Positions 3,433 through 28,824 of a stretch of 31,111 bases of DNA are shown here, in pieces (the stretch's first letter is position 1; the number at the start of each line of letters is the position of its first letter). The notes under the pieces are model-generated. The model was not told the DNA's origin. It saw only the letters and a program-made list of their open reading frames with translations, and did not search any database. Position numbers and translations under genes: made by a program. This DNA is from a virus, in the IMG/VR virus record IMGVR_UViG_3300010287_000003. The stretch is one strand, 5' to 3'.

Positions 3433-3453
3433 ATCTGATAACGGTTATCAGAT
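3433..3453 (+). repeat. 21-bp palindrome copy 1 (ATCTGATAACGGTTATCAGAT), intergenic
   Basis: Exact match to the four other copies. Perfect 10-bp arms around a central G. Confidence 0.97.
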
Positions 3454-5889: not shown

Positions 5890-5910
5890 ATCTGATAACG
5901 GTTATCAGAT
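5890..5910 (+). repeat. 21-bp palindrome copy 2, intergenic
   Basis: Exact ATCTGATAACGGTTATCAGAT. Confidence 0.97.
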
Positions 5911-6612: not shown

Positions 6613-9539
6613 CGATAGCGAACCTGGGCGACGCAAAAGGGCGCATCATCCTGGATGCCAGTGGGGTGCAGGCCGGGATTGATGAGGCGCGCCGGACGTT
6701 CGCCGATGGGATGCGTGGAATTGGTGACAGCCTGACCGACGTAGGCAAGTCACTGTCCATCCTGACGGCGCCGCTCATGCTGTTCGGGACGCTTGGCATT
6801 AAGGCGGCGGCGGATTTCGACGCGGCAATGCGCGAGCTGAGCGCGCGGACGGGGATCGTCGGCGACGACCTGGAGCGGATGCGGCAGGCCGCGATCGAGA
6901 TGGGGGAAACCACCGTCTTCAGCGCGGTGGACGCTGCGAACGCGCTGCTCCAGCTCACTAGCTCTGGCCTGAGCGCGGACGAAGCGCTGGCGGTTCTGCC
7001 GGCGGTGATGTATGGCGCCGCGGCGGCAGGAACGGACCTGGGCGACACGGCCGACTGGGTAACGGACATCTTGGCGCAGTTCGGCTTGAGCGCCGAAGAT
7101 GCGAACTGGGTGATCGACACGCTCGTCAAGACGGCGGGTAGCGGCTCGGCGACGGTGCAGGACCTGGCGCTCGGTTTCCAGAACGCCGGTTCGATCGCGG
7201 CGCTGTTTGGGCTGTCGGTCGATGAGGTGGCGGCGACGCTGCAAGTCTTCAGCGAAAACGGTATTAAAGGCGCTGAGGCGGGTACGCAGCTTAAGTCGAT
7301 GCTCACTAACATGACGAGCCAGACGCCCGACACAATCGCGGCCTGGAACGAACTGGGCGTGTCGATGTTCGACGCCCAGGGCAACATGCGCGACCTGGAT
7401 GCCGTGATTGACGACCTCAACGCGGCGATGGCCGACATGACGCAGGAAGAGCGCATCTCGTATATCCAGCGGCTGGCCGGGGCTTACGGGCAGGCAGGGC
7501 TTCAGGCGCTGCTGGCGGCCGGCGGCACAGACGAAATGCTGGCAGCAATGGACGGAGCTGCCGGGGCGATCGACGTCGCTAATGCCAGGATGGAAGGCTG
7601 GCACGGTGCGACCGAGGGGCTGAGCGGCTCGATCGAAACGTTCATGATCAACGTCCTGACGCCGTTCATGAACGATAAGCTGGCGCCGATGGTGAACCAG
7701 CTCGCCGGAGTGGTCGATTACATTAACCAGTGGGCGCTGAAGAACCCTGAGCTGACCTCTACGCTGGTGCTGATGCTGGCGGTGCTGACGGCGTTGGGGC
7801 CGATCATGGTGGTGCTCGGGACGATCATCACCAACACGAGCACGGTATTCGGTGCGATGACCGCGACGGCAAAGCTGCTCGGCGCGGCGATCGGCGGCAT
7901 CGGGTGGCCGGTGCTGCTGGTTATCGCGGCCGTCGGCGCGCTGGCGGCGGCCTGGTCCACCAACTTCCTCGGAATCCGCGACACGGTGATGGGTGTCGTG
8001 GATGAAATCACCCCGAAGCTGCAAGCCATCTATGACACGCTGAAGAACGGCGACGTCGAAGGGGCCGTCGGCAAGGTCGGCGAACTGGTGGAGAGCGCCA
8101 AGAGCGCGATCGAGACGGCGCTGCCGGACATCCAGGCGAAGATGAGCGAGTGGACGGCGGCGTTTTTGGACTGGCTGCCGCCGCTGGACGAGCTGACGCG
8201 CGAGCTTGGCACGCTGGCACTGAACATCGGCGTGTGGATTGGCGACAAGGCGCTGGAAATCGCGGGCTGGCTGCTGGACTGGGCGAATGCCTTCCTGGCG
8301 TGGATCGCGCCGCAGATCCCGACCATCCTGGCAGAGCTGGGCGTGCTGGCGACGGAACTGCTCAACTGGATCGGGACGGAAGCCCTGGCGCTCGCCGAAA
8401 AGCTGGCGCTGTGGGCGGCGGAGCTGGTGGCGTGGATCGCGCCACAGATTCCGCTGGTGCTGGCGGAACTCGGCGCGCTGGCAACGGAGTTGCTGAACTG
8501 GGCCGGGGAGCAGGCGCTCGCCATTGGCGAAAAGCTGCTGGAATGGGCGAATGCCTTCCTGGCGTGGATCGCGCCGCAGATCCCGACCATCCTGGCAGAG
8601 CTGGGCGTGCTGGCGACGGACTTGCTCAACTGGATCGGCGAGCAGGTGGCGGTGATCGGCGAAAAGCTGTTGGAATGGGCGGGCGCCTTTGTGGACTGGA
8701 TCGTCCCGGCGGCGGCCGACATGCTGCTGGAGCTGCCGGGGCTGCTGGCGGACCTGACGAAATGGATCCTGGACGTAATCCCGGACATTGTGGCGAACAT
8801 CCTGCTGTGGGCGGCGGAGTTCGTCAACTGGATCGGGCCGGTGGCGGCGGACATGGTGGTCGCGCTGGGCGACGTCGTCTCCGCGGTCGTCAACTGGATT
8901 CTGAGCGAGTTTGTTCCGGCGCTGATCGCAGAGGCGCCGGGCATGATGGCGGCGCTGATCCAGTTTGTGTACGAAGCGGTGACGAAGATCCCCGAAGCGC
9001 TGGGCGAGTTTCTGGGCGCGGTCACGAACTGGCTTGCGAACGACATGCTGCCCGCGCTGTTCAACGCAGCGATCGACCTGGGCAAATCGATCCTGGACGG
9101 CATTATCTCCGGCCTGGGGAACCTGGCGCGGGAACTGGCGCGGGTGATTGACGAGGCGCTGCCAGACAAGGTGAGCCTCGGCTCGATCCACGTGCCGGAC
9201 CTGGGACCGCTGGGCGGCGGGTACGACGTAGAAGTGGGCTTTGACCTGCCGGCCAATCCGCTTCAGGAACTAATGGGCATTATGGACAAGGGCGGTAAGG
9301 GGCTGGCCGACGTGCCGTACCTTATCGGTCGCGGCGCTCAACCAGAACTGTTCATCCCCGACTCGCCGGGGACGTTCTACCCGCGCGGGCAGTATCCCGA
9401 GGACCTGCTGAACGGGGGAGACACCTACAACGTTTTCGTAGACGTGCCGCCCATCCTGCTCCAGCAGGAGCCGCAGATCGAAGATAACGCGCGGTTGTTC
9501 GGCGAGCGGCTGGTCGCCGCACTACAAGCGATGGGGTAG
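6609..9539 (+). CDS. Tail tape measure protein
   Basis: 976 aa, the largest ORF. N-terminal TP901-type core-like segment (AADFDAAMRELSARTG ... TVFSAVDAANALLQL), hydrophobic segments mid-protein and Trp-periodic tandem repeats. Follows the chaperone pair. Confidence 0.9.
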   Translation: MTIANLGDAKGRIILDASGVQAGIDEARRTFADGMRGIGDSLTDVGKSLSILTAPLMLFGTLGIKAAADFDAAMRELSARTGIVGDDLERMRQAAIEMGETTVFSAVDAANALLQLTSSGLSADEALAVLPAVMYGAAAAGTDLGDTADWVTDILAQFGLSAEDANWVIDTLVKTAGSGSATVQDLALGFQNAGSIAALFGLSVDEVAATLQVFSENGIKGAEAGTQLKSMLTNMTSQTPDTIAAWNELGVSMFDAQGNMRDLDAVIDDLNAAMADMTQEERISYIQRLAGAYGQAGLQALLAAGGTDEMLAAMDGAAGAIDVANARMEGWHGATEGLSGSIETFMINVLTPFMNDKLAPMVNQLAGVVDYINQWALKNPELTSTLVLMLAVLTALGPIMVVLGTIITNTSTVFGAMTATAKLLGAAIGGIGWPVLLVIAAVGALAAAWSTNFLGIRDTVMGVVDEITPKLQAIYDTLKNGDVEGAVGKVGELVESAKSAIETALPDIQAKMSEWTAAFLDWLPPLDELTRELGTLALNIGVWIGDKALEIAGWLLDWANAFLAWIAPQIPTILAELGVLATELLNWIGTEALALAEKLALWAAELVAWIAPQIPLVLAELGALATELLNWAGEQALAIGEKLLEWANAFLAWIAPQIPTILAELGVLATDLLNWIGEQVAVIGEKLLEWAGAFVDWIVPAAADMLLELPGLLADLTKWILDVIPDIVANILLWAAEFVNWIGPVAADMVVALGDVVSAVVNWILSEFVPALIAEAPGMMAALIQFVYEAVTKIPEALGEFLGAVTNWLANDMLPALFNAAIDLGKSILDGIISGLGNLARELARVIDEALPDKVSLGSIHVPDLGPLGGGYDVEVGFDLPANPLQELMGIMDKGGKGLADVPYLIGRGAQPELFIPDSPGTFYPRGQYPEDLLNGGDTYNVFVDVPPILLQQEPQIEDNARLFGERLVAALQAMG
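8151..8939 (+). repeat. Six in-frame tandem repeats of about 132 bp (43-44 aa) inside the tape measure gene
   Basis: Units start at the Trp codons at 8151, 8280, 8412, 8544, 8676 and 8808. Units 2 and 4 share about 76 identical nt (from 8280 and 8544). Confidence 0.85.
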
Positions 9540-14902: not shown

Positions 14903-16328
14903 TAATTGGCTATGGCTCGGCGCGATCGCCTGGGTGCTGCTGATCATCGTGACGTGGCACAGCGAGGACCTGGCGGCGACGCCGGTTGTGGCGCAGGGCA
15001 GCGGCGCATCTGATAACGGTTATCAGATAGAGCCGGGGTGGTACATGCGGTTGGGCGAGCTGTACTGGGACGAGGCGACGGGGCACCTGCTGTTATGCAG
15101 CGAGTGGTCTACCGACTGCCCGCCGGGCGCGCCGGTGACTCCGGAGCCGAGCGAGCTGCCGGTCATAATCCCATCCATAACTTACACCCCGGATTTGACT
15201 GCTACACCACCGCCGACCAACACGCCGCGCCCCAGTCCGACGCCGACTCTGACACCGAGCGCGACGCCGGGCATGCCGACGCCGACGCCCGAAATGAAGT
15301 GCTGGGGCACGGTGACGGCGACCAGGCTCAACGTGCGCGACAAGCCCAACGGAACTGTTCTGGGGCAGGTGGCGCAGGGCGACACGCTGGCGCTGGAAGG
15401 CGTGCGCTACGGCGAGGACGGCAGCAAGTGGTATCTGATCTACTGGTTGCCGGACGTGACCGGGTTTGTGGCCGTGCAGTATGTCGAGGTCGATCAGGAT
15501 GCGGCGTGCGGCCACCTGATCGACCGCCCCATGCTGGGCTGGACGGTCGTCCCTGGCGCGAGCCGGGACGCGCTGCTGCTGGCGGGCGATCTGATGATGG
15601 CGGGCGGGATCACACCGTCTGCCACAATCACCAGCGACGGAGAGACGGCGAGCGTGCTGCACGACGCGGGCTGGTTTGTCGTCGTGCGAATGTGGGCGAT
15701 CTGGCCCGGCGACTGCCCGGACATGAGCCTGCCGCCGGCGACGTCGGCGCGGCTGCGCGTCGAATATCTGGAGCGGCAGCACGGCGGGGCGCGGTTCAGC
15801 GCGGCGCAGCTCACCAATGAGTGCGCCTGGCCGAGCGCGGCGTACCTGCGCGACTGGCTGATCGCCGCGGTCGGCGAGTGTGACGATCGGGGCTGGTCGT
15901 GCATCCCGGTGACGTTTAACACCGGGGCGCCGGAGTTGACCTGGCTGGCGACGCTGCGCCCAGCGCTGCGCCTGATGCGCGAGCGCGGCCACTACCTGGG
16001 TTACAATGCCTACCCGTATGACGCGGACCGGTCGCTGTGCGAGGTGAACGACTGGACAAGTTACACCACCTACCGCTGGCGGAAGTTCGCGGAAGAGATC
16101 CCGGTGGACGAGCTGCCGCTGCTCTACCTCACGGAAGCGGCGCGGGGTGACGGCGCGCAGCCGGTGGTGATCGAAGATACGACCTGCTTCGTGGCCGCGA
16201 CGCGCGGCGAAGTGGTGGCGGTCAATTTTTGGTATGACGGCGTGGCGCTGGCACCGTGGACGGGCGCGGCCTGGTCGAACGGAGCGAAGTGGGAAGCGGC
16301 GCGCCAGTGGGCGCGAGCGCTGATCTGA
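14883..16328 (+). CDS. Putative endolysin: signal-anchor + Pro/Thr linker + SH3b-like + C-terminal TIM-barrel-like domain
   Basis: 481 aa, TTG start. N-terminal hydrophobic segment (WLWLGAIAWVLLIIVTW), PT-rich linker and an SH3b-like segment (ATRLNVRDKPNGTVLGQVAQGDTL ... WYLIYW ... GFVAVQYVE). C-terminal about 280 aa carries NEC ... GHYLGYNAY ... LTEAA spacing reminiscent of clan GH-A hydrolases. Confidence 0.5.
   Translation: MKRLTGSNWLWLGAIAWVLLIIVTWHSEDLAATPVVAQGSGASDNGYQIEPGWYMRLGELYWDEATGHLLLCSEWSTDCPPGAPVTPEPSELPVIIPSITYTPDLTATPPPTNTPRPSPTPTLTPSATPGMPTPTPEMKCWGTVTATRLNVRDKPNGTVLGQVAQGDTLALEGVRYGEDGSKWYLIYWLPDVTGFVAVQYVEVDQDAACGHLIDRPMLGWTVVPGASRDALLLAGDLMMAGGITPSATITSDGETASVLHDAGWFVVVRMWAIWPGDCPDMSLPPATSARLRVEYLERQHGGARFSAAQLTNECAWPSAAYLRDWLIAAVGECDDRGWSCIPVTFNTGAPELTWLATLRPALRLMRERGHYLGYNAYPYDADRSLCEVNDWTSYTTYRWRKFAEEIPVDELPLLYLTEAARGDGAQPVVIEDTTCFVAATRGEVVAVNFWYDGVALAPWTGAAWSNGAKWEAARQWARALI
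15008..15028 (+). repeat. 21-bp palindrome copy 3, inside the lysin candidate (encodes SDNGYQ)
   Basis: Exact ATCTGATAACGGTTATCAGAT. TCT at 15009 is in frame with the 14883 start. Confidence 0.97.
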
Positions 16329-16391
16329 GGACGAGAGGGGACAAGGGAAATGGCACTGATCGAACAGACAGTGGATACCGCGGGCGCTGCT

Positions 16392-16652
16392 TTAGCCGCC
16401 CGGGCAGATGCTTTCGCAGGGCACGCCGTCCGCGTCGCCGTCTCGCGCGGTGCAGCCGCACTGCTCTAGCTGGTAGTACGCTTCTTCGCAGGTCATCGTT
16501 TTGCATGTTTTCGTGCAATCGCAGGTGTACGGCGCGGCTTGCGGCGCGGCGGCTGACTCCTGCGCCGGGTGGGGCTGGTCGGACTGGACGACTCCGACGC
16601 TGACGATCAGGGCGAAGACGATCGCGGCAAGATAGTAGATAATGTCTCTCAC
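16392..16652 (-). CDS. Secreted/membrane-anchored Excalibur calcium-binding domain protein
   Basis: GTG 16652 has AGGGGGA 5 nt upstream (track ORF extends to 16742). 86 aa: hydrophobic N-terminus, then CDCTKTCKTMTCEEAYYQLEQCGCTARDGDADGVPCESIC, which matches the Excalibur DxDxDGxxCE pattern. Confidence 0.7.
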   Translation of the reverse strand: MRDIIYYLAAIVFALIVSVGVVQSDQPHPAQESAAAPQAAPYTCDCTKTCKTMTCEEAYYQLEQCGCTARDGDADGVPCESICPGG

Positions 16653-16726
16653 GGTGATCCCCCTGGTGGCGTGTGCGCTGGCTTTAGGATAGCTGGCTCG
16701 CGCAACGGCGCAAGCTGGAAAGCACA

Positions 16727-16751
16727 AGCGCCCCGATCGCACCGGGGCGCT
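16727..16751 (-). terminator. Hairpin downstream of the 728-aa gene (9-bp stem AGCGCCCCG/CGGGGCGCT, 7-nt loop)
   Basis: Lies 17 nt after the reverse-strand stop at 16768. On the reverse strand it is followed by UGUGCUUUCC, a weak U-tract. Confidence 0.4.
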
Positions 16752-16767
16752 GTGTTGGATGGTGGGA

Positions 16768-18954
16768 TTAGGCTTCGTCTGGGTCGTCGGGCTGGAGCAC
16801 GATCAGCAGCCCGGTAAGCGAATTCAGCGCGCCGCGGGCGCACACCTGCGCCTTGTCGATGCGCAGCGCCAGTGCTTCGGCGTCCTTGTCGGAGAGCTTC
16901 CCGGCGAGGTACATGCTGGCTTGGGTGACACGTGTGGCGCGAGATGCGCTGTTGATCAGGCGGTCCAGCTCGACCACTGTGCGCTGGTAGAGGCGCTGGA
17001 CGGCGGCCGGCGGCTCGTTATCCGCCTCGTCGGGTAGCGCGGCGAGCAGCTTGGCGTAGACGTCGCGCCCGGCGTCGGTCAGGACGTAGCCGGTGCACCA
17101 CTGGCTGCCCGATGACCACTTGTTGACCGGGGCGATCCAGCCCTCGCGGATGGCGAGCTTGGCGGCAGGGCTGGTGTCAGTGTAGTCGGCGCCGTCCCAG
17201 GCGGCCGCGAGCAGCGACTCGGAGTTGGGGCGCAGCTCGTGGAGCAGGTGCAGCAGCGGCACATGCTGATCGGCGGGGATGACGGCGAGCGGATCGGGCG
17301 GGGCAACGCGCTTGACTACGCCCGGCTGTGGACGCGCGAGCTTGCCCGCGCCGATCAGCAGGTTCAGAGCGCGGTGGAAGCGGTCGTTTTGCAGACCGCT
17401 TTTCTGGCGGAGCGTTTCGAGTAGCGTGGCTTCGTCTTCCAGCAGGTCGAGCAGGCGATCGGCGTCAAGGGCGGTTTGCGTGGGCGGGAGCGACTTTTCC
17501 CAGTCTTCGGCGTCAGCTTCGTGCTCGTCCGGCTCGTCCTCGTAGTCGCCGGTGCAGTCGTCCGCCAGCTCATCATCCGGCGTCGCTTCGGCTTCGGCCT
17601 CGGTCTGCTGGCGGCGGGCGTCGTCTTCGGCCATGCTCTGCTGCCACTCTTCGCTGCCTTCGGGGATCTCTTCGCGTTCATCCGGATCGAGCACGTCGAG
17701 CAGGCGCTCGCCTTCAGGGACTTCGCGCCCGGCGGGCTTCTTAATCCACACCGAGAGCGGCGAGAGGGTGAAGCGCTCCAGCTCGCCCGCTTCGCACAGG
17801 GCGTCGATCGCGGCGTTGAGCACGTCCTCATTCATGAGGGTGTGTGAGCGGAGCCAGGCGATCTTGATGGATGAGAGCGTCGGGAAGTCGCGCTGGTGTT
17901 GCGCCACGACGCGGCGCAGCAAATTCACTGCCTCTTCGTCGGCGAACGGCTTGGCTTTGGTAGGACCGGCCGGCAGGTAGAGGTCACGGAGACGCCGCAC
18001 GCGCTGCTCGCTGACGAGGGTTTCCAGCGCGCGCCGCAGGGCTTCCAGCCCTGCCTTATCGTCAAGGCCGATATCCAGCAGCTCGCGGATTTGTGCGGTG
18101 GTGAGAGGCTTCTGGAGCAGGTCCAGGATGCGCGCCTGCAACTCGGTTCCGCAATTCACTCGGAAGAAGTCGCGGCCTTCGACGAGCGTCAGCGGGTCCG
18201 CTTGCTCGGTGCCATACAACCGGTCGTGGAGCGCGTAAGCGTCGAATTCGATTTTGGCCTGGCCGTCCCAGACGCCTGCCGTGACCAGCTTGCGGGCGAC
18301 ATCCACCGCGCGGTGTTCGGCACCATCGTCGCTGCGCCCCAGGATAACAATCGCGTCGCGGTCGAACTTGGCGTTTAACTCCGCTTCGACGCGGGCGCGG
18401 GCTGCTTCAACGCGAGCCTCGGAGTTGACGTTCTGCGTGTAGGTTTCGCCGCCGCGCTGAAACAGGCGCGTCTCGGGCATCTGATAACCGTTATCAGATA
18501 GCTCGCGGCGGATCTTAGACACAAGGGGCTGAGACACCATGCAGCGGCGGGCGATTTCATGATCGGACCACTGGCACCACTCGTCGTCCCCGAGCAGCAT
18601 GAGGACGGCACGGCGCTTGTCCTCGTTGCTGCGCCGGACGCCGTGGCTCGCGTTGGCCTTGACCGCGGCGAGGATTGCGTCACGCTTGGAGCCGGGATGG
18701 ACCGTCGCGTTGATCGCGGTGCGCTGGAGCCGTTTCGCGGCGCGGATGCGGTGCCAGCCGTCGCCGATCCAGTACCACTCGCCGTCGTAGAACAGTTCTA
18801 CATCGGGGAGCTGCGTTCCGGCGGCCATCGCGTTAGCGTAGTCTTCGATCGCGCTCTCGTCGAACACGGCGCGCGCCTGGGTGTCTTCGTCCTCGCGGAT
18901 GCGATCCAGCGGGACCATCTTCGTTTGAACTTCCTCGTCGAACAGGGTGGTCAT
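16768..18954 (-). CDS. Large ParB/Srx-domain protein with HTH and several winged-helix-like modules
   Basis: 728 aa, AGGAG RBS. N-terminus (VPLDRIREDEDTQARAV ... WYWIGDGWHRIRAAKRL ... GSKRDAILAAVKANASHG) fits the ParB N-terminal fold, followed by HEIARRCMVSQPLVSKIRR (HTH). Also has an acidic linker and repeated wH-like segments. Confidence 0.7.
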   Translation of the reverse strand: MTTLFDEEVQTKMVPLDRIREDEDTQARAVFDESAIEDYANAMAAGTQLPDVELFYDGEWYWIGDGWHRIRAAKRLQRTAINATVHPGSKRDAILAAVKANASHGVRRSNEDKRRAVLMLLGDDEWCQWSDHEIARRCMVSQPLVSKIRRELSDNGYQMPETRLFQRGGETYTQNVNSEARVEAARARVEAELNAKFDRDAIVILGRSDDGAEHRAVDVARKLVTAGVWDGQAKIEFDAYALHDRLYGTEQADPLTLVEGRDFFRVNCGTELQARILDLLQKPLTTAQIRELLDIGLDDKAGLEALRRALETLVSEQRVRRLRDLYLPAGPTKAKPFADEEAVNLLRRVVAQHQRDFPTLSSIKIAWLRSHTLMNEDVLNAAIDALCEAGELERFTLSPLSVWIKKPAGREVPEGERLLDVLDPDEREEIPEGSEEWQQSMAEDDARRQQTEAEAEATPDDELADDCTGDYEDEPDEHEADAEDWEKSLPPTQTALDADRLLDLLEDEATLLETLRQKSGLQNDRFHRALNLLIGAGKLARPQPGVVKRVAPPDPLAVIPADQHVPLLHLLHELRPNSESLLAAAWDGADYTDTSPAAKLAIREGWIAPVNKWSSGSQWCTGYVLTDAGRDVYAKLLAALPDEADNEPPAAVQRLYQRTVVELDRLINSASRATRVTQASMYLAGKLSDKDAEALALRIDKAQVCARGALNSLTGLLIVLQPDDPDEA
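18479..18499 (-). repeat. 21-bp palindrome copy 4, inside the 728-aa ParB-like gene (encodes SDNGYQ on the reverse strand)
   Basis: The + strand reads ATCTGATAACCGTTATCAGAT, so the central base is G on the sense (reverse) strand. In frame with start 18954. Confidence 0.97.
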
Positions 18955-18966
18955 GCCTAAAAACTC

Positions 18967-19125
18967 CTAGTAAATCTGGCCGCAGATTGCGACGCCAGCG
19001 AACAGCACAATGAAGGGCCAGAGGCAGCCGAGCCATTTCCGAAAGCTGCCCTGAACGCGGACGCGGCCGCCGGCGATCAGCATCATCGGCTGGCGGGCTG
19101 CTGGATCTTCGGGTAGATTCTTCAT
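18967..19125 (-). CDS. Small membrane protein (52 aa; alternative start 19140)
   Basis: MKNLPEDPAARQPMMLIAGGRVRVQGSFRKWLGCLWPFIVLFAGVAICGQIY has a C-terminal TM segment. AAAGGAAG lies upstream of ATG 19125. The rest of the longer track ORF is Arg/Pro-rich and unlikely. Confidence 0.4.
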   Translation of the reverse strand: MKNLPEDPAARQPMMLIAGGRVRVQGSFRKWLGCLWPFIVLFAGVAICGQIY

Positions 19126-19190
19126 CGGGCTTCCTTTCATGGTGGCGCGGGCGTGTTTGCGGCACGCCCGCGCGCTGCGCTGTGAAGGGG

Positions 19191-19559
19191 CTAGCTGTTG
19201 CCGGGGCGGGCCAGACGAGGTTCCGCCCTGGTGCTTTCTACGAGGCTCGTGAGAGCAGCGTTCGTTTCGTGCGCTGCGCGGGCGGCTGTTGCCCACAGAT
19301 CCCACACGGCGGCGATGTTGGGGCTGCGCGTGACCGCCGCATAGTCCGTCAGGAACTCTTTTTCGACGATGACCAGGTCCTCGGGCCGGGCGTAGTAGTA
19401 CGTGTTCCAGGCGATTTCGACACGGATGTAGGTCGGGCCGACAGCGTCCACGACGCCGAGCCGTCCGGCGGGGAGCGTCGCGTCGGGGCGGTTGCGGTTC
19501 TGCAGGTCCTTCTTTGGGGCGACCAGGTCGCCGACTTCGATGCAGTCCATTGTCCTCAT
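19191..19559 (-). CDS. Hypothetical protein
   Basis: 122-aa ORF in the leftward operon with normal amino-acid composition and no recognised motif. Confidence 0.55.
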   Translation of the reverse strand: MRTMDCIEVGDLVAPKKDLQNRNRPDATLPAGRLGVVDAVGPTYIRVEIAWNTYYYARPEDLVIVEKEFLTDYAAVTRSPNIAAVWDLWATAARAAHETNAALTSLVESTRAEPRLARPGNS

Positions 19560-19562
19560 TCC

Positions 19563-20351
19563 TTAAACCTGGGCCGGGGCGGGCGCGGGTAAAACTTCGA
19601 TGGCGGCGACGACGTCTTCGAGGCTGACGCCTTTCGGCAGGAGCGCGGCGTGAATGCGAACGCCAGTCACTTCGAGCGTTTCCGGCTCCGGCTCAGACTG
19701 CGAGCGGAACGGGTAGAAGGGGCGGCCGATGACAACTTTCAGATCGTCCGACGTGGGCAGACCGAGCCGACGACGGTAGTAATCCTCGTTGTGTTGCAGT
19801 CGGCTGTACTCACGCCGCAGGTCGGCGAGTTCGCTCCGCGTCTTTGAGAGCGCATCTTTCGCCTCTTCGAGCTGCCGGAGCAGCGAGTTTTCGTACTCGT
19901 CACGACCGGTGCAGATGCTGGCGTAGCGCTGCGCCTCGGCGCGCGTCTCGCCGATGATGCGGGCCTGGCTTTCGCGCAGATCTTCGGACACCTTCAGTTT
20001 GCGCGTCAGCTCGCCGATGCGCTGGCGCTGGCGCCACCAGCTCCGCAGGGCGACGGAGCGCAGACGAGCCGCCGTCTCGGGATTGCGGCGCAGAAGCCGG
20101 TATTGCCGGTAGGCTTCGCGGTAGGCAGCGCGGATGCTTTTGCTGCTGCTGCCGACGGGCGTGGACTGGAGATGCAGTAGCGGGAAGATCACAACCCAGC
20201 GGCCACCCCAGTCGGAGTGGATGCGCATGTGCAGCAGCGTGTTTCCGCTGGGATCGATCCAGGCGGTTTCTTGCAGGTCCTTGTCGCCGATCTTGGAAAC
20301 GCGAAGATTGCGTGTGTTCGGCCTGAAGATGTTGGAGTTCTTCTCAGACAT
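19563..20351 (-). CDS. Hypothetical protein with central coiled-coil, first gene of the leftward operon
   Basis: 262 aa, AGGAG RBS. Lies downstream of a strong leftward promoter. No HTH recognised. Confidence 0.6.
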   Translation of the reverse strand: MSEKNSNIFRPNTRNLRVSKIGDKDLQETAWIDPSGNTLLHMRIHSDWGGRWVVIFPLLHLQSTPVGSSSKSIRAAYREAYRQYRLLRRNPETAARLRSVALRSWWRQRQRIGELTRKLKVSEDLRESQARIIGETRAEAQRYASICTGRDEYENSLLRQLEEAKDALSKTRSELADLRREYSRLQHNEDYYRRRLGLPTSDDLKVVIGRPFYPFRSQSEPEPETLEVTGVRIHAALLPKGVSLEDVVAAIEVLPAPAPAQV

Positions 20352-20476
20352 AATTGGCTCCTATTGGTTCTATACGGTCTCAATGGTATATCCATTCTGA
20401 ATTTCGTGCTTGGGGATGGCGCTCCTTTCGCGTGGCGGGGCTTGTGTCTGCCGCGTCATTCAGACTACTTGTAATC

Positions 20477-20505
20477 ATGATAAAAGAAGTCTCAATGAAA
20501 GTCAA
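20477..20505 (-). promoter_or_regulatory. Leftward early promoter (TTGACT - 17 nt - TATCAT on the reverse strand)
   Basis: The reverse complement of 20461-20510 reads agttgTTGACTttcattgagacttctttTATCATgatt. The spacer contains the repeated motif CATTGAGAC. Confidence 0.6.
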
Positions 20506-20525
20506 CAACTAGTCTCTATCGTATG

Positions 20526-20555
20526 TTGACAAAAGAGAACCGGGTGCTTTATCCT
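20526..20555 (+). promoter_or_regulatory. Rightward early promoter (TTGACA - 17/18 nt - TTATCC/TATCCT)
   Basis: TTGACA at 20526-20531 and a -10-like hexamer at 20549-20555. Lies about 40 nt upstream of the XRE-gene start and back-to-back with the leftward promoter. Confidence 0.55.
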
Positions 20556-20591
20556 AGAAACGAAACGGCCACTTCTAGCAAGGTGGGATGT

Positions 20592-20900
20592 ATGGACCAA
20601 TCGAGAACGGCGAGCGAACCAAAACGCAGGTTAAGACTGAGGAATCGCTTCGCGGAACTCCTGGCCGCGCACCAGCGGACGACACGCCGTAACTGGAAAT
20701 ATGAAGAGATTTCCAAAGTGACAGGAGTCTCTCCCGGTACGTTGTCTTCTTACGCGCAGAACAAGGTCACTCGATATGACGAAGTGACCGTTGTGCCGCT
20801 GATGGAGTTTTTTGGCCTCACCGACGTCGGCAAGCTTTTGGTGCTCGAAGAAGAAGAGGTCGAAGACGAGGGGCAGCAAAAAGCCGTCGCGGCGGGATAG
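20592..20900 (+). CDS. XRE-family HTH transcriptional regulator (Cro/CI-like)
   Basis: ATG 20592 with AAGGTGGGA upstream; the track ORF start 20523 would include the promoter. NWKYEEISKVTGVSPGTLSSYAQNKVTRYD is a typical HTH_XRE; the C-terminal tail is acidic. Confidence 0.75.
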   Translation: MDQSRTASEPKRRLRLRNRFAELLAAHQRTTRRNWKYEEISKVTGVSPGTLSSYAQNKVTRYDEVTVVPLMEFFGLTDVGKLLVLEEEEVEDEGQQKAVAAG

Positions 20901-20995
20901 CACCACGACGGCGAGCGCGAGCGCGGTGAAGTCGCGTCGCGCCTGAAATTGAGTATAGTAATTTTTGTGCCTCAATGCAGCGTTAAGGATTTAGC

Positions 20996-21559
20996 ATGTT
21001 TCGCGCAATTCTCATAGTCGTTGTCCTGTTCGGCCTGGCGATCCCGGCGGCGAGCGGGCAAGAAGAACAACGGTTCGAGGGGGCAGGGATGGACGTGTGG
21101 GTGCCGGGTGGCTGGCAGGTGACGGAGACTGACGACGACGTCGTGCTGACCAATCTGCCGACTGACAAGCCGGACTGGCTGGCGACGATCGAGCCGGGGC
21201 GGGTGACCGCGCACCTGGCGCCGCTGAGCGCGCTGGTCGAGAGCGGAATCCTGACGGACGATCCGGCGTTTCTCGCGGGCACTTACACCGGTGTCGCGCT
21301 GACGACGAACGCGTTTATGAGCGCGTTCTCGCCGACGCCGTCCGCCGAGCCGCTGACGTACACGATCAGCGAGCTGGTGGAAGAGGACGGCGTGTGGTCG
21401 GTGGAGATGACGATCGGCGGCGGAAAACCGGTCGATCTACTGATCGTCGTAGTGGAAGACGCCTTTGTGCTTACCGCTAGCGCGCCGCGTGGGGAACTGG
21501 GCCAGTGGCGTGACGTGCTGAACGAGATCGCGGCAAAGGCCGTCGCTGCGACCGCCTGA
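20996..21559 (+). CDS. Secreted hypothetical protein (signal peptide)
   Basis: The N-terminus of this 187-aa ORF, MFRAILIVVVLFGLAIPAASGQ, looks like a signal peptide. Function unknown. Confidence 0.6.
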   Translation: MFRAILIVVVLFGLAIPAASGQEEQRFEGAGMDVWVPGGWQVTETDDDVVLTNLPTDKPDWLATIEPGRVTAHLAPLSALVESGILTDDPAFLAGTYTGVALTTNAFMSAFSPTPSAEPLTYTISELVEEDGVWSVEMTIGGGKPVDLLIVVVEDAFVLTASAPRGELGQWRDVLNEIAAKAVAATA

Positions 21560-21635
21560 TCTTTAACAACTGAGGACCTCGCCGAGCCTGGGCAGTAGGG
21601 GGCTGGCAGAGGGAGAGTTTTGGACAAAGACGCAG

Positions 21636-21665
21636 AGGTCCCGGGTTCAAGTCCCGGCACCCCGA
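21636..21665 (+). other. tRNA 3'-end fragment (T-arm + acceptor 3' strand + discriminator A); probable attP core
   Basis: CCGGG-TTCAAGT-CCCGG followed by CACCCCG-A. No complementary 5' acceptor strand (CGGGGTG) or anticodon arm lies upstream. About 40 nt from the integrase gene end. Confidence 0.65.
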
Positions 21666-21704: not shown

Positions 21705-22676
21705 CTACCCTGCGCCAAGCTGATGCTTAGCAGCAGGGTTTTGTTTTATCTGCTGCGGCTGCCAGTAGTGCAGATCGAGCAGCGCCCCGGCCTGGCGTAG
21801 ATCCGTTTCGTCCACGTCCTGGTAGTACTCCAGCGTCGTCGTGATGCTGGTGTGTCCCAGGTAGTGCTGAGTGATACGGGGAGCGACATGCTCGCGGGCA
21901 AACTTCAACCCCACACGATGACGCAAGCTGTGCGCGCCCAGGCGGCGCGAAAGCCCGGCTGTTTTGCACAGACGCCGGATGACCTCGCTGATCGCACGTG
22001 GCGAGAGGCGGGCAGAGCCACGCCACGGTGTGAAGACGTAATCCGTCGGCTTGTCGGGCCGGGCTTCGAGCCATGCGCGGATGGCGTCGGCTGTCTCCGC
22101 GTTGAAGTAGATGCGGCGGCGCCGGTTCCCCTTGCCGTTCACCAGCGCAGAACAGTTGTCCAATTCGAGGTCGCGGATTCGCAGACCTGCCGCTTCGCCG
22201 GCACGACAGCCCGAATTGGCGAGCAGGAGCACGAGCGCCCGATCGCGCGGCTTGAAGCGCGACGCGGCGAGCAACATCTCCAGCTCGTCATCCGTGGCGG
22301 CCTTGCCCTGACCAAGCGGCAGCGCAGGGCGGCGATTGACGAGGTAACCAGCGGGCGAGGCGTCGATAAGGCCAGAGCGCTCGCACCAGCGAAAGAAGGA
22401 CTTAATCATCTTGACATTTTTATAGATGGTCGCCGGAGCAAGGGGGGCCTGGACCGCCGGGCGGCGGGTGTGCGTGGCGTACTTGGTTGTGCGCGTTCGC
22501 ATCGCCGTCACGTAGGCGTCGATGTCTTCGGGCCGGACAAGGGAGATCGGTCGCTGCGGCCCGATCGCGGCGACGAACTCGGTGAGGAAGCGGCGATACG
22601 TCTGCTTCGTCTGGTCAGCGCGATCGACCAGCAGATAGCGGCGTAACGCCTCTTCGAGCGTGATGGGTTCGGTCAT
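21705..22676 (-). CDS. int: Tyrosine recombinase / phage integrase
   Basis: 323 aa with SGCRAGEAAGLRIRDL, HSLRHRVG and LGHTSITTTLEYY (the R..HxxR..Y catalytic pattern). Adjacent to the tRNA fragment. Confidence 0.9.
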   Translation of the reverse strand: MTEPITLEEALRRYLLVDRADQTKQTYRRFLTEFVAAIGPQRPISLVRPEDIDAYVTAMRTRTTKYATHTRRPAVQAPLAPATIYKNVKMIKSFFRWCERSGLIDASPAGYLVNRRPALPLGQGKAATDDELEMLLAASRFKPRDRALVLLLANSGCRAGEAAGLRIRDLELDNCSALVNGKGNRRRRIYFNAETADAIRAWLEARPDKPTDYVFTPWRGSARLSPRAISEVIRRLCKTAGLSRRLGAHSLRHRVGLKFAREHVAPRITQHYLGHTSITTTLEYYQDVDETDLRQAGALLDLHYWQPQQIKQNPAAKHQLGAG

Positions 22677-22826: not shown

Positions 22827-23972
22827 ATGGACAGTGAGAAACCTGTAGAAATCAGGGATGAAGGCACGACGGATCGCTATTTCCACGTCATGTTGAACAT
22901 GGCGGACGACGACCTCGATCCATATGAATACCGTCTGCTGGGGCACTACCGGCGCGTGTGCGGGGCGCAGAATGTGCCATGCACCGAGGGGACGCGGAAG
23001 ACCGCCGAGCGGTGCAAGATGAGCGCCGGGAAGGTGTCGGAGACGCGCGCAGCGCTGGCAGCGGCAGGCTGGATTAAGCTGGCCGAAGACGGCAACCGGG
23101 TGATCGTGACGCTGATTGATCGCATGCCCGAAAATGTTGCCCGTTATAGCGCCGATAAGCGTTCACCTGATGAACGTTCACCACATGAACGTTCTGGGAA
23201 TCGCAAAAACGTTCACCGTATGAACGTTTCGTTCACCACACGAACAAAACGTTCACCACATGAACGCAAACGTTCACCTGGTGAACGGAAGAAAGAACTT
23301 ATTAAGAAACAACCATTCAAAGAGCCAGCAAAAACATCATCAAGCAGCGATCGGGGAGATCGGACAGGCGGCGAGCAGGTTGATGATGATGGCTTCATCA
23401 GAAACCAAGCCGAGCTGATCGGTTTGAGCCGTGAAAACTGCGAGAAGCTGCTCGCGGTGGGCGTGGAGCGCGCAACGGGGCTGCTGATCGCAGCGCGACG
23501 TAAGGCGAAGACGAACCCGGCGGGCCTGCTGCTCGCGATGCTGGGCAGCGAACAGCCGCCTTCAGCGGACGATCTGTCGCTGGTGCCGCTGGCGCTGGAG
23601 CTGGGGACGACGGAGCCGGATCGGCTGGATCGCGAGCAACGGGGGCGACAGCTTCGCCAGTTTGCCGCGCGCCAGAACGGTTCTGATCTGGCGGCGAGCA
23701 CGCCGGACCGGTCCGCGCAGGACGTGTGGCAGCAGGTGATCGGGCAACTGCGGGTGCAGCTTAACCGGGCGACGTTCGACACGTGGCTAGACGGCATGAC
23801 CGCGGAGCAGTTCGCCGATGGCGTGCTGACGGTCCGCGCTAAGCACGCGTACGGGGCGGACTGGTGCAAGAAGAATCTCCAGCCGCTGGTGGACCGGCTC
23901 GCGTCCACGGCGGCCGGGCAGGCGATCCGAGTGGTGTTCGAGGCTCCGGCGTGGATGGTCGCCAGGAGCTAA
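22827..23972 (+). CDS. Replication initiator (N-terminal wHTH, iteron-encoded linker, C-terminal DnaA-domain-I-like module)
   Basis: 381 aa. N-terminus YEYRLLGHYRRVCG ... KMSAGKVSETRAALAAAGWIKL (wHTH). The internal iteron array is translated in varying frames. C-terminus DVWQQVIGQLRVQLNRATFDTWL ... GADWCKKNL ... IRVVFEA resembles the DnaA N-terminal domain. Confidence 0.65.
   Translation: MDSEKPVEIRDEGTTDRYFHVMLNMADDDLDPYEYRLLGHYRRVCGAQNVPCTEGTRKTAERCKMSAGKVSETRAALAAAGWIKLAEDGNRVIVTLIDRMPENVARYSADKRSPDERSPHERSGNRKNVHRMNVSFTTRTKRSPHERKRSPGERKKELIKKQPFKEPAKTSSSSDRGDRTGGEQVDDDGFIRNQAELIGLSRENCEKLLAVGVERATGLLIAARRKAKTNPAGLLLAMLGSEQPPSADDLSLVPLALELGTTEPDRLDREQRGRQLRQFAARQNGSDLAASTPDRSAQDVWQQVIGQLRVQLNRATFDTWLDGMTAEQFADGVLTVRAKHAYGADWCKKNLQPLVDRLASTAAGQAIRVVFEAPAWMVARS
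23161..23286 (+). repeat. Six iterons GTTCACCNNNYGAAC (putative origin of replication), followed by an AT-rich tract 23287-23350
   Basis: Copies lie at 23161, 23176, 23211, 23231, 23251 and 23272 (15 nt each, GTTCA/TGAAC inverted arms). The downstream ggaagaaagaacttattaagaaacaaccattcaaagagccagcaaaaacatcat is strongly A/T-enriched. Confidence 0.7.
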
Positions 23973-24043: not shown

Positions 24044-24808
24044 ATGATCACTTTTGCGGCAATCAATGAGAAGGGCGGGTCGGGCCGCACGACAGCGTTT
24101 GTCAACCTAGCGGCGGGTCTCGCCGTGCGGGGGAAGCGGGTGTTGCTGATCGACACCGACGAGCAAGGTCACGCGACCATTGCCTACGGCTTTGAGAAGT
24201 TCGCGGGGCTGTACGACCTGATGGTGCGCGGCGCCAAGTGGTTTGACGTGGCGATTCCGGTGGACGCCGAGCGATACGGCAGCCGGGGCCTGAGCAATCT
24301 CTACCTGGTCGGCTCGAACGTTGAGACACGGACCATCGCGCTCAACATTGACGACAAGTGGCGGCTCGCCAAGCGCCTCGCCGAAGTTTCGGATATGTTC
24401 GACGTGTGCCTGATCGACACGTCCCCCACTCCATCCGCGCTGCACAGCACGGTGTTCCTGGCGGCAGATTACATCATCTGTCCGACAGAGCTTGAGGTCC
24501 TCGGGCTGGACGGCTTGCACGAGTCGATTAAGCGGGTACAGGCGGTGCGGGTGCTGGAAGGCAAGGACCTGCGCGTCGCGGGAATTGTGCCGAACAAGTG
24601 CCGCCTGACGACGCTTGAGCACAAAGAGAACCTGGCCCGGCTGCAAGAGAGTTTCGGCGCGGCGGTCTGGCCGCCGATCACGCTGAGCATTATCTGGCCC
24701 GAGGCGATGGCTTTCGGGCGCCCGGTGATCGTCCATGCGCCCGATCACGACGCGGCGTTTTCGGTGTGGGAAATGGTAGACCGCGTGGAGGCACTTTGCA
24801 ATGGCTAG
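24044..24808 (+). CDS. parA: ParA/Soj-family partition ATPase-like protein (Walker A Lys replaced by Arg)
   Basis: 254 aa with NEKGGSGRTT (deviant Walker A), VLLIDTDEQG and FDVCLIDTSP. GGAGAGGG RBS. Confidence 0.8.
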   Translation: MITFAAINEKGGSGRTTAFVNLAAGLAVRGKRVLLIDTDEQGHATIAYGFEKFAGLYDLMVRGAKWFDVAIPVDAERYGSRGLSNLYLVGSNVETRTIALNIDDKWRLAKRLAEVSDMFDVCLIDTSPTPSALHSTVFLAADYIICPTELEVLGLDGLHESIKRVQAVRVLEGKDLRVAGIVPNKCRLTTLEHKENLARLQESFGAAVWPPITLSIIWPEAMAFGRPVIVHAPDHDAAFSVWEMVDRVEALCNG

Positions 24809-26288
24809 TAGACGGCGGCAGGGAGATCGGATCGGACCGCTCGTAGGCGAGCGTGAGACGCCGTCGGACGCGGCGCAGCGGATCTATGGCACGGTGCGGC
24901 GCGTGAAGCTGGATGAAATCCGGATCGTGGACAGCGTTCAGGTGCGGGTAGACGGGCTGGACGAAGAGCGTGTTGAGCGCTACACGGAATTTCTGCTCGC
25001 CGGTGGCACCTTCAAAGATGCGATCGTGGTCTACCAGGATGGGCCGGACCTGATTCTCGCGGCAGGGTTCCACCGGTGTGAGGCGTACCGGCGCGCACTG
25101 GAGCGCTTTGAGCCGAGTGGGGATGCGCAAGCACTGGCGCCGTTGATGGCGGAAATTCGGACCGGCGGGCATGAGGCGGCGATCGAGTTCGCTGAAGAGG
25201 ACAATCTGGCGCACGGGTTGGAACTGTCGCCACGGGATAAAAGGTACATCCTGGAGCGCCGTTTCAAGCGCGGGCATGAGTGGGCGTCGTTGAGCAACCG
25301 AGCACTGGCAGCAAAGTTAGGCGTCTCTGACATGACGATCGGCCGCTGGCGGGCGGAGATCGAAGAGAAAACAGGTGCAACAAATGTTGCACGTGGGCGC
25401 GTCGGCAAGGATGGCAAGACCTACGATGTGAGCGGGCAGCAGATCGCGGCGGCACGCGAGGCGCTGGCGAGGCTGGCTCTGCCGCCGCTTGACAAGGACC
25501 AGCGCGAAGTAGTGCGGCGGTCCATCATCACCAGCATTGACTACATCAAGATGGCGCAGTACGGCTCCGGCTGTAAATACCGTCAGTACCTGCCCTATGC
25601 GCTCGCGGTGGAGTTGGAAGCCGACGAGCCGCGTGTGTCGCTGGTGAACTGGATGCGAGGCGAGCTGCCGAAGTGGCAGGAAGAGCAGGACGAGGCGCGC
25701 CGGACCGAGGAGCAGGCGGCACGCGCGCGCCTTAAGGAACATCTGCTGGCGGTGTTGCTGCGCGGGCCATTCGACCTGACGCAGATGATTGGATTGGACG
25801 GGCTTGCTGGCTTGACTCCGCGCGCGTGCTGGGATGTGGTCCATGATCTGATGCGCGAGGGGGCGATCCGGCGCGTGTCGGATGACGTGTATGAGCTGGT
25901 GCGCGCCGCCGAGCCGAGCGAAACTGAGCCGCTATCTGATAACGGTTATCAGATGGACGAGCCGGAGCCGGAAGCGGATTGGCTCGATGCGACGGTCAAG
26001 CGGGCGGCGGGAGTGGCCCTGCGGGATAATACGTCAATCGAATACGAGAGCGACGAGGCGATGGCGGCGAGGTTAACCGAGTTACTGCGCGTCGGCTCGC
26101 ATGTCTTGTGCGACCTGGAAGATGTGCTGGAGCAGACAGCACCGGTGCCGGAGTGGGTGTTGTCGAAGCTCGATGACTTGAGCAAATTGCTACATGGTCA
26201 TCCAGGCCAAGACGACGATATTTGGAATCCCGGGCTGAACAGCTTGCTGGCCGACCTGAACACGAGAAGCAGAAGGGAGCGGGAATGA
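24801..26288 (+). CDS. ParB/Srx-domain HTH protein (ParB-like partner of ParA)
   Basis: 495 aa; its start overlaps the parA stop. KLDEIRIVDSVQVR ... LILAAGFHRCEAYRRA (ParB N-domain-like), LAAKLGVSDMTIGRWR (HTH) and a wH-like segment. The acidic linker carries the palindrome. Confidence 0.7.
   Translation: MASRRRQGDRIGPLVGERETPSDAAQRIYGTVRRVKLDEIRIVDSVQVRVDGLDEERVERYTEFLLAGGTFKDAIVVYQDGPDLILAAGFHRCEAYRRALERFEPSGDAQALAPLMAEIRTGGHEAAIEFAEEDNLAHGLELSPRDKRYILERRFKRGHEWASLSNRALAAKLGVSDMTIGRWRAEIEEKTGATNVARGRVGKDGKTYDVSGQQIAAAREALARLALPPLDKDQREVVRRSIITSIDYIKMAQYGSGCKYRQYLPYALAVELEADEPRVSLVNWMRGELPKWQEEQDEARRTEEQAARARLKEHLLAVLLRGPFDLTQMIGLDGLAGLTPRACWDVVHDLMREGAIRRVSDDVYELVRAAEPSETEPLSDNGYQMDEPEPEADWLDATVKRAAGVALRDNTSIEYESDEAMAARLTELLRVGSHVLCDLEDVLEQTAPVPEWVLSKLDDLSKLLHGHPGQDDDIWNPGLNSLLADLNTRSRRERE
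25934..25954 (+). repeat. 21-bp palindrome copy 5, inside the 495-aa ParB-like gene (encodes SDNGYQ)
   Basis: Exact ATCTGATAACGGTTATCAGAT. TCT at 25935 is in frame with the 24801 start. Confidence 0.97.
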
Positions 26289-28422: not shown

Positions 28423-28824
28423 ATGGCCCCGCGGCGGCAATGGACCGACGAAGAAAAGGCGGAGATTCTGGCCGCGCTGGACGCCAATCAAGGCAACGTC
28501 AAGCGGACGGCCCGGCAGTGTGGCGTGCCGATCAGCACGCTGCGCGGCTGGGTGAAAGGCCGGGGAACCAACGCCGGAGTGGCGAAGTTGCGCCCCGAAA
28601 AAAAGGGCGACCTGGCCGACGCGCTGGAAGAAATCGCCTGGAAGATTGTGGAGCTGCTGCCGGACAAGCTGGAGACGGCGGAAGTGCGGGAACTGGCAAC
28701 GCTGCTGGGCGTGTCGCTGGACAAGCTGCTGGTGCTGCGCGGCAAGGCGAACAACCGGACCGAGGTCAGCGGCGTGCAGATTTACGTCCCCGACAACGGG
28801 CGGCAGAGTAACCAGGTGGCATGA
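28423..28824 (+). CDS. terS: Terminase small subunit (HTH type)
   Basis: 133 aa. N-terminal HTH (QGNVKRTARQCGVPISTLRGWVKG). ATGA overlap with the large terminase. Confidence 0.7.
   Translation: MAPRRQWTDEEKAEILAALDANQGNVKRTARQCGVPISTLRGWVKGRGTNAGVAKLRPEKKGDLADALEEIAWKIVELLPDKLETAEVRELATLLGVSLDKLLVLRGKANNRTEVSGVQIYVPDNGRQSNQVA

Follow-up and report, generated by a model that had tools for sequence, protein, structure and literature searches.

Can a large ParB-like protein, encoded in an operon without a recognisable CI-type repressor, act as a regulator of an entire phage genome? This question is raised by positions 16,768 to 20,351 of a 31,111-nucleotide stretch of viral DNA (IMG/VR record IMGVR_UViG_3300010287_000003; the whole stretch is called the window below), where a leftward operon encodes a 262-amino-acid (aa) coiled-coil protein, a 122-aa protein, a 52-aa membrane protein and a 728-aa ParB-like protein. 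Five copies of a 21-bp palindrome are dispersed over the same genome, one of them inside the gene of the 728-aa protein. Our comparisons suggest that the palindrome belongs to this protein and that, with a probability of roughly 0.4, protein and sites would make up a long-range regulator of the phage genome.

The palindrome and its link to the 728-aa protein

The palindrome, ATCTGATAAC(G/C)GTTATCAGAT, is 21 bp long and is present in five copies, none of which has a mismatch to the pattern with a central S, the number expected from 100 shuffles being 0. The copy in the 728-aa gene (18479..18499) codes for L-S-D-N-G-Y-Q-M, residues 152-159, directly after the recognition helix. Two further copies are coding: one in the 481-aa lysin-like gene (15008..15028), in the linker after the N-terminal membrane anchor, where it is read as SDNGYQI, and one in the gene of a second ParB paralogue (25934..25954), in an acidic C-terminal linker, where it is read as LSDNGYQM (residues 378-385). 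The remaining two are intergenic and stand between the major capsid gene and the next gene (3433..3453), 5 nt past a GC-rich hairpin and abutting a ribosome-binding site, and between the major tail gene and the tail chaperone gene (5890..5910), 2 nt past a GC-rich hairpin. These hairpins (3404-3427 and 5864-5887) lack a T-run, and both intergenic palindromes are then followed by late-gene ribosome-binding sites. Among related loci (L numbers), the lysin-linker site is found at the same place in L053, L001, L061 and L066, and the parB-linker site occurs also in the homologous linker of L054. The coding copies use TCT, GAT, GGT and TAT, codons that account for 6-26% of their synonymous sets here, and the joint probability of the six-codon spelling of the palindrome is about 2e-4 given the codon usage of the genome.

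Conservation is argued here solely from loci that were found by protein or by gene neighbourhood, not by the DNA pattern. The identical 21-mer, spelled with the same codons, is present in the homologues from L001, L002, L004, L005, L006 and L056, down to a protein identity of 39-43%. As judged from these sequences, the comparison shows the protein and the 21-mer to be inherited together, with the site lying in linker-coding DNA right after the recognition helix. A more distant set of 46 loci (L007-L052) was obtained by scanning 185,579 species genomes with the closer family alignment; it includes Chloroflexota, Planctomycetota, Cyanobacteria, Proteobacteria, Acidobacteria and others, and the N-domain and helix-turn-helix (HTH) are the only part that its members have in common. 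In 22 of the 46 homologues, a perfect palindrome of different sequence, with arms of 8-18 bp, lies just after the HTH codons, about +400 to +460 nt into the gene. The palindrome centres are at most 75 nt, and mostly no more than ~12 nt, away from the position homologous to residue 155, and the background for such palindromes is 1.6% of 4,647 windows from the same loci (P ~1e-27).

The distant palindromes differ in sequence while having in common the shape CTGnnAAC-n-GTTnnCAG, and the inner bases of the half-site track the first residues of the recognition helix. The helix SQPF goes with the half-site GATAAC, a pairing that the phage group and a Burkholderia locus show independently of each other; the helices SNRF, SNTF and SNPF go with GTGAAC, GTCAAC and GTTAAC, SDxF with GC[AG]AAC, SHxF with G[GT]xAAC, and HHDT with CTGGCGGA, the last pairing occurring in a phage ParB as well as in two loci from Nostocales cyanobacteria. 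The covariation of helix and half-site gives a Mantel r of 0.69, a value reached in 0 of 20,000 permutations. Moreover, the two arms change jointly and stay perfectly complementary, which shows that a symmetric DNA site is under selection.

A scan of JGI metagenomes with the 21-mer returned 26 loci, many of them within SQPF-type ParB-like genes and two in lysin-like linkers; since these loci were selected by the 21-mer itself, they illustrate contexts only and are not used as an argument for conservation. A tblastn search with the N-domain gave four weak phage records, the best of which has no in-gene palindrome. Neither an N-domain homologue nor a repeated long palindrome was found in 80 terminase-related IMG/VR phage loci (937 kb), and most other family loci have a single in-gene site within 10 kb, so that the five-fold dispersal is a trait of this phage group. 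An initial annotation, made from the letters of the window, had listed five palindromes, including the one in the 728-aa gene, and had suggested that the 728-aa protein nucleates on them. The copies and their positions hold, and the suggestion is supported by the conserved 21-mer, by the family-wide position of the palindrome and by the covariation of helix and half-site. We therefore regard the 21-bp palindrome as very probably the cognate site of the 728-aa protein.

Domain organization of the 728-aa protein

The 728-aa protein (16768..18954, minus strand) begins MTTLFDEEVQTK, its first predicted strand starts at residue 10, and its N-domain (18592-18927) is recognised by PHROG 1033, by a family profile and by Foldseek. 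Residues 12-148 match PHROG 1033, 'ParB-like partition protein', with an E value of 8e-19, a profile built from 17 members of the family finds Myxococcus ParB 7bnk at an E value of 1.7e-9, and Foldseek returns Noc, ParB, KorB, PadC and Srx with a probability of 1.0. Pfam ParB_N did not reach E 0.1 on the single 728-aa sequence, and the NCBIfam Noc model scored 14 bits only against a cutoff of 315. In the AlphaFold2 model (mean predicted local distance difference test score (pLDDT) 70, predicted template modelling score (pTM) 0.30), the N-domain is followed by the HTH (residues 131-154; 18493-18564), a beta-hairpin, a small mobile domain (residues ~190-262; 18169-18387), two winged helices (residues 269-328 and 340-404; 17743-18150), a disordered acidic linker (residues 407-485; 17500-17736), a winged helix (493-549) together with a winged-helix-like module within 555-639 (17038-17478), and a helical hairpin at the C-terminus (residues 650-720; 16795-17007), all encoded on the minus strand. 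Foldseek also finds the tandem-winged-helix proteins SelB (1lva) and TFIIIC, consistent with the modelled modules. The C-terminal hairpin is a prediction of the model, and for the helical C-terminus no homology with the C-terminal domains of known ParB proteins was detected.

In sequence, the N-domain and HTH are closest to MT-A70 and Dam fusions, at 45-56% identity. The ~70-aa domain (residues 192-262) is absent from the L001 orthologue, and in L001 it forms the N-terminus of the counterpart of the 262-aa protein instead (L001 7363-7600). Of all parts of the C-terminal region, this domain has the widest distribution, being present in many other proteins alongside ParB_N, DUF3102 or Dam.

The phosphate-contacting residues Q52, R54, R95 and N127 of Myxococcus ParB, whose roles have been described (PMC13229309), correspond in the alignment to Q26, R28, R69 and N101. 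The Q/R of Box I and the GxxR of Box II, in which G66-W67-H68-R69 aligns with G92-E93-R94-R95, are at positions that are invariant in the 17 family members. The catalytic Glu of GERR (E93) is replaced by Trp67, and ENxxR reads A100-N101-A-S-H104, the Asn alone being retained. An N-terminal ParA-activating peptide of the LG[KR]GL type (PMC12704722) was not found in the 728-aa protein, and domain searches found no ParA in the leftward operon.

The ParA-linked second paralogue

A second ParB paralogue of 495 aa (24801-26288, plus strand) is encoded directly after ParA and is 25% identical to the 728-aa protein over 366 residues. It has a basic N-terminal extension and the recognition helix VSDMTI, and at the family-typical place after its HTH codons there is a single copy of the near-palindrome GTGCAAC-AAAT-GTTGCAC (25375..25392), which is the probable site of the 495-aa paralogue itself; the pairing of an SDM helix with GTGCAA(A)C is found also in the planctomycete locus L046. 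In L054, the ParA-linked gene has the helix VHHDTV and the site TGGCGGA-TT-TCCGCCA (L054 489-504), helix and site having been exchanged together relative to the window, as a single recombined module. The ParA-linked ParB of L001 (430 aa) belongs to the same family and has an in-gene palindrome of a third type together with two related copies. So the family includes true ParA partners, and in the window the five exact sites appear to go with the orphan 728-aa protein and the single GTGCAAC site with the ParA-linked one.

The operon, its conserved cassette and the divergent regulator

The leftward promoter-like site TTGACT-17-TATCAT (20505..20477, minus strand) matches the consensus at 10 of 12 positions, and L056 and L001 have consensus-like hexamers at the aligned position. 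A leader of ~45 nt (TACCATTGAGACCGTATAGAACCAATAGGAGCCAATT-ATG; 20352..20400, minus strand) lies directly 5′ of the first cassette gene and can be aligned between the window, L053, L056, L005, L001 and L006, the proteins of which are only 27-52% identical. The leader contains GTCTCAATG, and the same GTCTCAATG is found in the promoter spacer (20489-20497); no RNA fold signal (z = -0.2) and no Rfam match was obtained for the operon leader. The genes that follow, all on the minus strand, encode the 262-aa coiled-coil protein (19563..20351), in which AlphaFold2 predicts one 106-residue helix (residues 91-196), the 122-aa protein of unknown fold (19191..19559), the 52-aa protein with a C-terminal hydrophobic, membrane-spanning stretch (18967..19125) and the 728-aa protein, directly after which there is a terminator-like hairpin (16727..16751). 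The 52-aa reading was chosen by the length of the homologues in five related loci, and its PF..L..GV stretch is kept in six loci. Searches of Pfam, NCBIfam and PADLOC yielded no informative match to the 262-, 122- and 52-aa proteins, and a fold search with the 262-aa model had no match better than E 0.29. Just five to six homologues of the 262-aa and 122-aa proteins were found, several of them mapping to the same cassette, and the homologues of all three partner proteins are confined to it.

The four-gene cassette and its divergent regulator recur in five further contexts, in the order divergent regulator, coiled-coil protein of 227-312 aa, protein of ~120 aa, 52-aa membrane protein and ParB-like protein of 594-755 aa. 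L001 is a Chloroflexi phage-like contig with Rep, ParA, ParB and integrase; L002, L053 and L054 are close relatives of the window; in L004 and L005 the cassette is chromosomal, by ribosomal protein genes and then GIY-YIG, Type ISP restriction and Fic genes; and L056 and L006 add further contexts. No ParA is in view of the cassettes in L004, L005, L006 and L056.

The divergent gene (20523..20900, plus strand) encodes an XRE-type regulator, the true start of which is probably M24 at 20592, giving the 102 aa called in L053, and a promoter-like site TTGACA-18-TATCCT (20526-20555, plus strand) lies inside the annotated start of the open reading frame. Matches of this protein to HTH_31/HTH_3 are weak and below cutoff, and its relatives are clear HTH_3 proteins. 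The divergent regulator is of the XRE type in most loci and of the RHH type in L001 (6481-6690), and regulators of both types end alike in [ED]DEGQxKAVAxG (window 20862-20900), a tail that may be a docking or degradation peptide. The inverted repeat AGACTACTTGT/ACAACTAGTCT brackets the leftward promoter (20462-20472 and 20505-20515), and AGTCTC(A/T)AT repeats are found in and around both divergent promoters (20376-20384, 20488-20496 and 20511-20519); inverted repeat and AGTCTC(A/T)AT repeats are candidate operators of the XRE protein.

Several claims of the initial annotation can be judged from these results. The strong leftward promoter-like site is present, and the gene order that it had been said to drive is confirmed, the small membrane protein being best read as 52 aa. 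The make-up given for the 728-aa protein, with a ParB/Srx N-domain, an HTH, an acidic linker and several winged-helix modules, is borne out by PHROG, profile, Foldseek and AlphaFold2 results. The statement that nothing resembles CI stands for the four operon proteins, in none of which profile searches found a CI-like, HTH_3/XRE or S24 domain; beyond the operon it does not stand, as the divergent XRE protein is an HTH protein of the Cro/CI type, weakly recognised here and clear in relatives. The treatment of the 728-aa protein as the key DNA binder was incomplete, in that Rep, ParA, the 495-aa ParB paralogue, the integrase and the attP-like site were not weighed, and too little had been made of the window being a complete phage genome.

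Proposed long-range regulation and its alternatives

The reading that we favour is that the 728-aa protein would be an orphan ParB-like DNA-loading protein of a mobile element, similar to KorB and BisD, the dimers of which would bind the five palindromes. Bound nucleotide would close these dimers into clamps that spread over the whole phage genome, and the clamps, together with the three operon partners and the divergent XRE regulator, would form a long-range regulator, as KorB-KorA or BisD-BisC do. The largest gap between sites is 9.1 kb on the 30,988-bp circle, any point being within ~4.6 kb of a site, and since ParB coverage around a site is typically 10-15 kb (PMC12409273), the whole genome would be within reach. 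As to the sign of the regulation, we favour a repressor that would keep the long rightward lytic unit off while the prophage is resident, because the operon has its own promoter-like site and terminator-like hairpin, because the integrated map places it between the lysis genes and attR, and because the cassette stays intact in chromosomal settings. The silencing or roadblocking of transcription that the initial annotation had proposed would be plausible, and the opposite sign a real possibility.

Several points weigh against this reading. The replacement of the GERR Glu by Trp67 and of the ENxxR Glu by Ala100 suggests that hydrolysis and a normal clamp cycle may be absent, and the nucleotide specificity of ParB folds is not predictable from sequence (PMC12704722). 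No recognisable promoters were found at the palindromes. The operator-like repeats overlap the operon promoter, so that the operon may be repressed in lysogens, which would favour an activator or a role in the lytic phase. With a single in-gene site within 10 kb in most family members, genome-wide action would be special to this phage group, and intact cassettes in chromosomal, non-phage-looking surroundings also fit a host-beneficial function. As to the covariation, the motifs were extracted by hand, and since the in-gene site lies 30-60 nt from the helix codons, shared descent adds to the correlation.

The same protein and sites could act with the opposite sign, in which case the operon would be expressed early or in the induction phase, and the ParB-like protein would activate or facilitate late genes from a long distance, like BisD-BisC on ICEclc. 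The operator-like repeats that bracket and overlap the operon promoter fit such a role, as do the XRE gene on the other side, accompanied by a signal-peptide gene in a layout typical of genes expressed in lysogeny, and the two palindromes immediately 5′ of late-gene ribosome-binding sites; BisD itself is loaded at palindromes inside genes, the central base of which is N, and together with BisC it switches on promoters over ~50 kb (PMC12409273). However, the lack of promoter-like sites at the palindromes counts here as well, the intact chromosomal cassettes are hard to explain, and we think activation quite unlikely. The cassette might alternatively be a prophage-borne defence or exclusion module, as the initial annotation had also considered, with the in-gene site used for autoregulation or self-marking and the winged helices and partners acting on incoming DNA. 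Its moron-like placement on the integrated map, between lysis genes and attR and with its own promoter and terminator-like hairpin, would agree with this, as would the GIY-YIG, Type ISP restriction and Fic genes that follow one chromosomal copy, and a part in defence or anti-defence is suspected for orphan ParB folds of mobile elements (PMC12704722). Yet PADLOC 2.0 gave no match for the four proteins, the coiled coil of the 262-aa protein producing noise only (LmuB E 0.004, JetC E 0.03), the defence-island neighbourhood is a single independent one, and defence would not account for the other four exact copies, which this phage keeps at conserved positions, the lysin and parB linkers among them; we rate a defence function as rather unlikely.

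Partition is a further candidate function, in which the five palindromes would be dispersed centromeres of a plasmid-like prophage, as in N15, and the 728-aa protein a second or accessory centromere binder that cooperates with ParA, or a factor of genome compaction. Rep, ParA and the ParB paralogue are present, one 21-mer site lies inside the ParA-linked parB gene, and in L001 the ParA-linked ParB is a member of this family with a site type of its own, dispersed in three copies; but the cassette occurs without ParA, the 728-aa protein has no N-terminal ParA-activating peptide while the 495-aa paralogue is extended at its N-terminus by a basic stretch and has a probable site of its own, and an integrase and attP-like site are present, which makes partition quite improbable as the function of the five sites. 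Finally, the palindromes might not be sites of the 728-aa protein at all but RNA hairpins or targets of the XRE protein, the 495-aa ParB or a host protein. The two intergenic copies, each of which follows a GC-rich hairpin and abuts a ribosome-binding site, could suggest an RNA element. A hairpin or terminator is unlikely, however, because the arms are 0-1 nt apart and cannot form a full hairpin and because the central base occurs in both orientations (SDNGYQ/SDNRYQ, with Gly or Arg); in addition, no T-run follows. The XRE protein was rejected as the binder since the fold of the divergent regulator switches to RHH in L001 and the palindrome remains the same. The 495-aa ParB was rejected as the main binder because its helix pairs with another half-site and because the 21-mer exists where no homologue of ParA or of the 495-aa protein is in view. 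Another owner of the palindromes is consequently very improbable.

The phage genome and its neighbouring modules

Bases 1-123 of the window are identical to bases 30989-31111, and this exact 123-bp direct repeat of both ends marks the contig as a complete genome of 30,988 bp that is either circular or terminally redundant. Its G+C content is 65%. A megablast search against 50,697 phage records found no near match to positions 16000-21000, and IMG/VR scans with the 728-aa protein or the lysin-like protein found no relatives; the nearest relatives come from a Chloroflexi bin and from metagenomes of anaerobic type. One long plus-strand unit contains Rep-like, ParA, 495-aa ParB-like, HNH, terminase, head, tail and lysin-like genes; it crosses the contig junction, and its head, tail and lysin-like genes reach 16328. 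The Rep-like gene (22827-23972, plus strand) has a DnaA_N-like end, ParA (24044-24808, plus strand) matches PHROG 164 (E 1e-35) and NCBIfam ParA_partition, and the large terminase gene (28821-30284, plus strand) is preceded by the HNH gene. A tyrosine integrase, recognised by domain match, is encoded at 21705-22676 on the minus strand, and beside it a weak match to a 3′ fragment of a tRNA or transfer-messenger RNA (tmRNA) lies at ~21599-21663, a fragment that, on this weak evidence, is probably the attP core. In the window, ARAGORN found no tRNA and an Rfam scan matched no family.

The integration module (integrase and attP-like site) and the plasmid-type module (Rep, ParA and ParB) thus coexist, as they do in L001 and L054. 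Inside the Rep-like gene there are two adjoining inverted repeats of the GTTCAC/GTGAAC type (23249-23287), one of which is kept in L054 (2590-2606); they may represent an origin or iteron region. The gene of the 976-aa tape-measure protein holds four tandem 132-nt copies (8241-8835), with 61-79% identity to the reference copy. The terminator-like hairpin of the operon is followed by a gene (16392-16742, minus strand) for a membrane-anchored protein of 116 aa that is rich in Cys and has the motif DGDADGVPCE (PHROG 5854); as this gene is missing from the close relative L053, it is probably a separate insertion. Near the integrase of L001, positions 15490-15951 encode a protein that matches the Pfam family AcrIC5 (anti-CRISPR).

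Novelty and implications

Orphan ParB-fold proteins are very common on phages, plasmids and integrative and conjugative elements (ICEs), and for almost all of them DNA target and function are unknown (PMC12704722). A 2025 survey of the ParB-CTPase fold covers orphan, prophage-enriched and methyltransferase-fused proteins, and the word palindrome is absent from it (PMC12704722). No paper describing a rule for in-gene sites was found, within an incomplete coverage of the literature, and the family-wide regularity of the in-gene site may be new. Should the in-gene palindrome prove to be the cognate site, many orphan ParB-like proteins would have their DNA target written in their own genes, and the pairs of helix and half-site provide a testable recognition code. 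A regulator of the proposed kind would be a phage counterpart of the long-range control by KorB and BisD and would imply lysogeny control or genome coating without classical operators at promoters. In its widest form, the proposal would be that orphan ParB-like proteins of mobile elements, methyltransferase fusions included, form a large family across phyla whose genes each harbour the loading site of their product in the linker codons behind the recognition helix, as a portable cassette of helix and site with a readable code, and that in this Chloroflexi-type phage group the sites have multiplied to cover the genome and the multi-winged-helix ParB-like protein, with its coiled-coil, small and membrane partners, has become the main factor of prophage maintenance or silencing, giving immunity without a CI-type repressor in that role; taken as a whole, we consider this possible but doubtful.

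Comparison with known systems

The 728-aa system is best read as a variant of the KorB/BisD-type ParB-like regulator, set in a phage. Like the 728-aa protein, KorB of RK2 combines a ParB fold with an HTH and uses one palindromic site many times over its own replicon. The KorB operator O_B has the consensus TTTAGCSGCTAAA and, like the 21-mer, is a palindrome of odd length with a free central G/C. Foldseek matches the 728-aa model to the KorB structures 8qa8 and 8qa9. KorB is, however, also the ParB of the ParA protein IncC and has a ParA-interacting peptide, whereas the 728-aa protein is an orphan, the ParB beside ParA being a separate paralogue. Unlike KorB, it has about four winged-helix modules and another C-terminus and has lost the hydrolysis Glu, and the three further cassette proteins have no match of the KorA or TrbA kind. 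KorA and TrbA, the small site-specific regulators that partner KorB, have in common a C-terminal domain that docks on KorB, their DNA-binding domains having diverged (PMC11790492, PMC13584720); the tail shared by the XRE- and RHH-type regulators would be the parallel here.

BisD, which acts with BisC on ICEclc of Pseudomonas, resembles the 728-aa protein in being ParB-like and an orphan, in belonging to an integrating element and in having an extra domain at the C-terminus. Its bisS sites are long in-gene palindromes with one free central base, and BisD acts over tens of kb with its partner (PMC12409273). BisD activates transfer genes and retains GxxR and ENxxR, whereas the 728-aa protein has ANxxH; bisS is present as two sites in an ICE, against five sites here in a phage; the likeness is one of architecture and in-gene sites only.

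N15 is a temperate phage with ParA/ParB and with palindromic centromere copies scattered among its phage genes, and its Sop system has been reported to influence late gene expression. Unlike in N15, the dispersed sites of the present phage covary with an orphan paralogue outside parAB, the ParA-linked paralogue has a different, single site, and an integrase and attP-like site are present.

Canonical ParB and Noc proteins share with the 728-aa protein the fold of the N-domain, the HTH and equivalents of the phosphate-binding residues, the top structures being Noc 7nfu and ParB 6t1f, 6sdk and 7bnk. The 728-aa protein differs from them in having no ParA partner, a 21-bp palindrome of odd length and a C-terminal extension of ~540 aa. 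For a site in the gene of its own binder there is a precedent in the parS inside spo0J of B. subtilis, and many of the distant N-domain homologues carry an in-gene palindrome at the same position as the 728-aa gene. Methyltransferase-fused ParB-like proteins are prophage-enriched and their role is unknown (PMC12704722); compared with these fusions, the 728-aa protein has winged-helix modules in place of the enzymatic domain and is part of a four-gene cassette.

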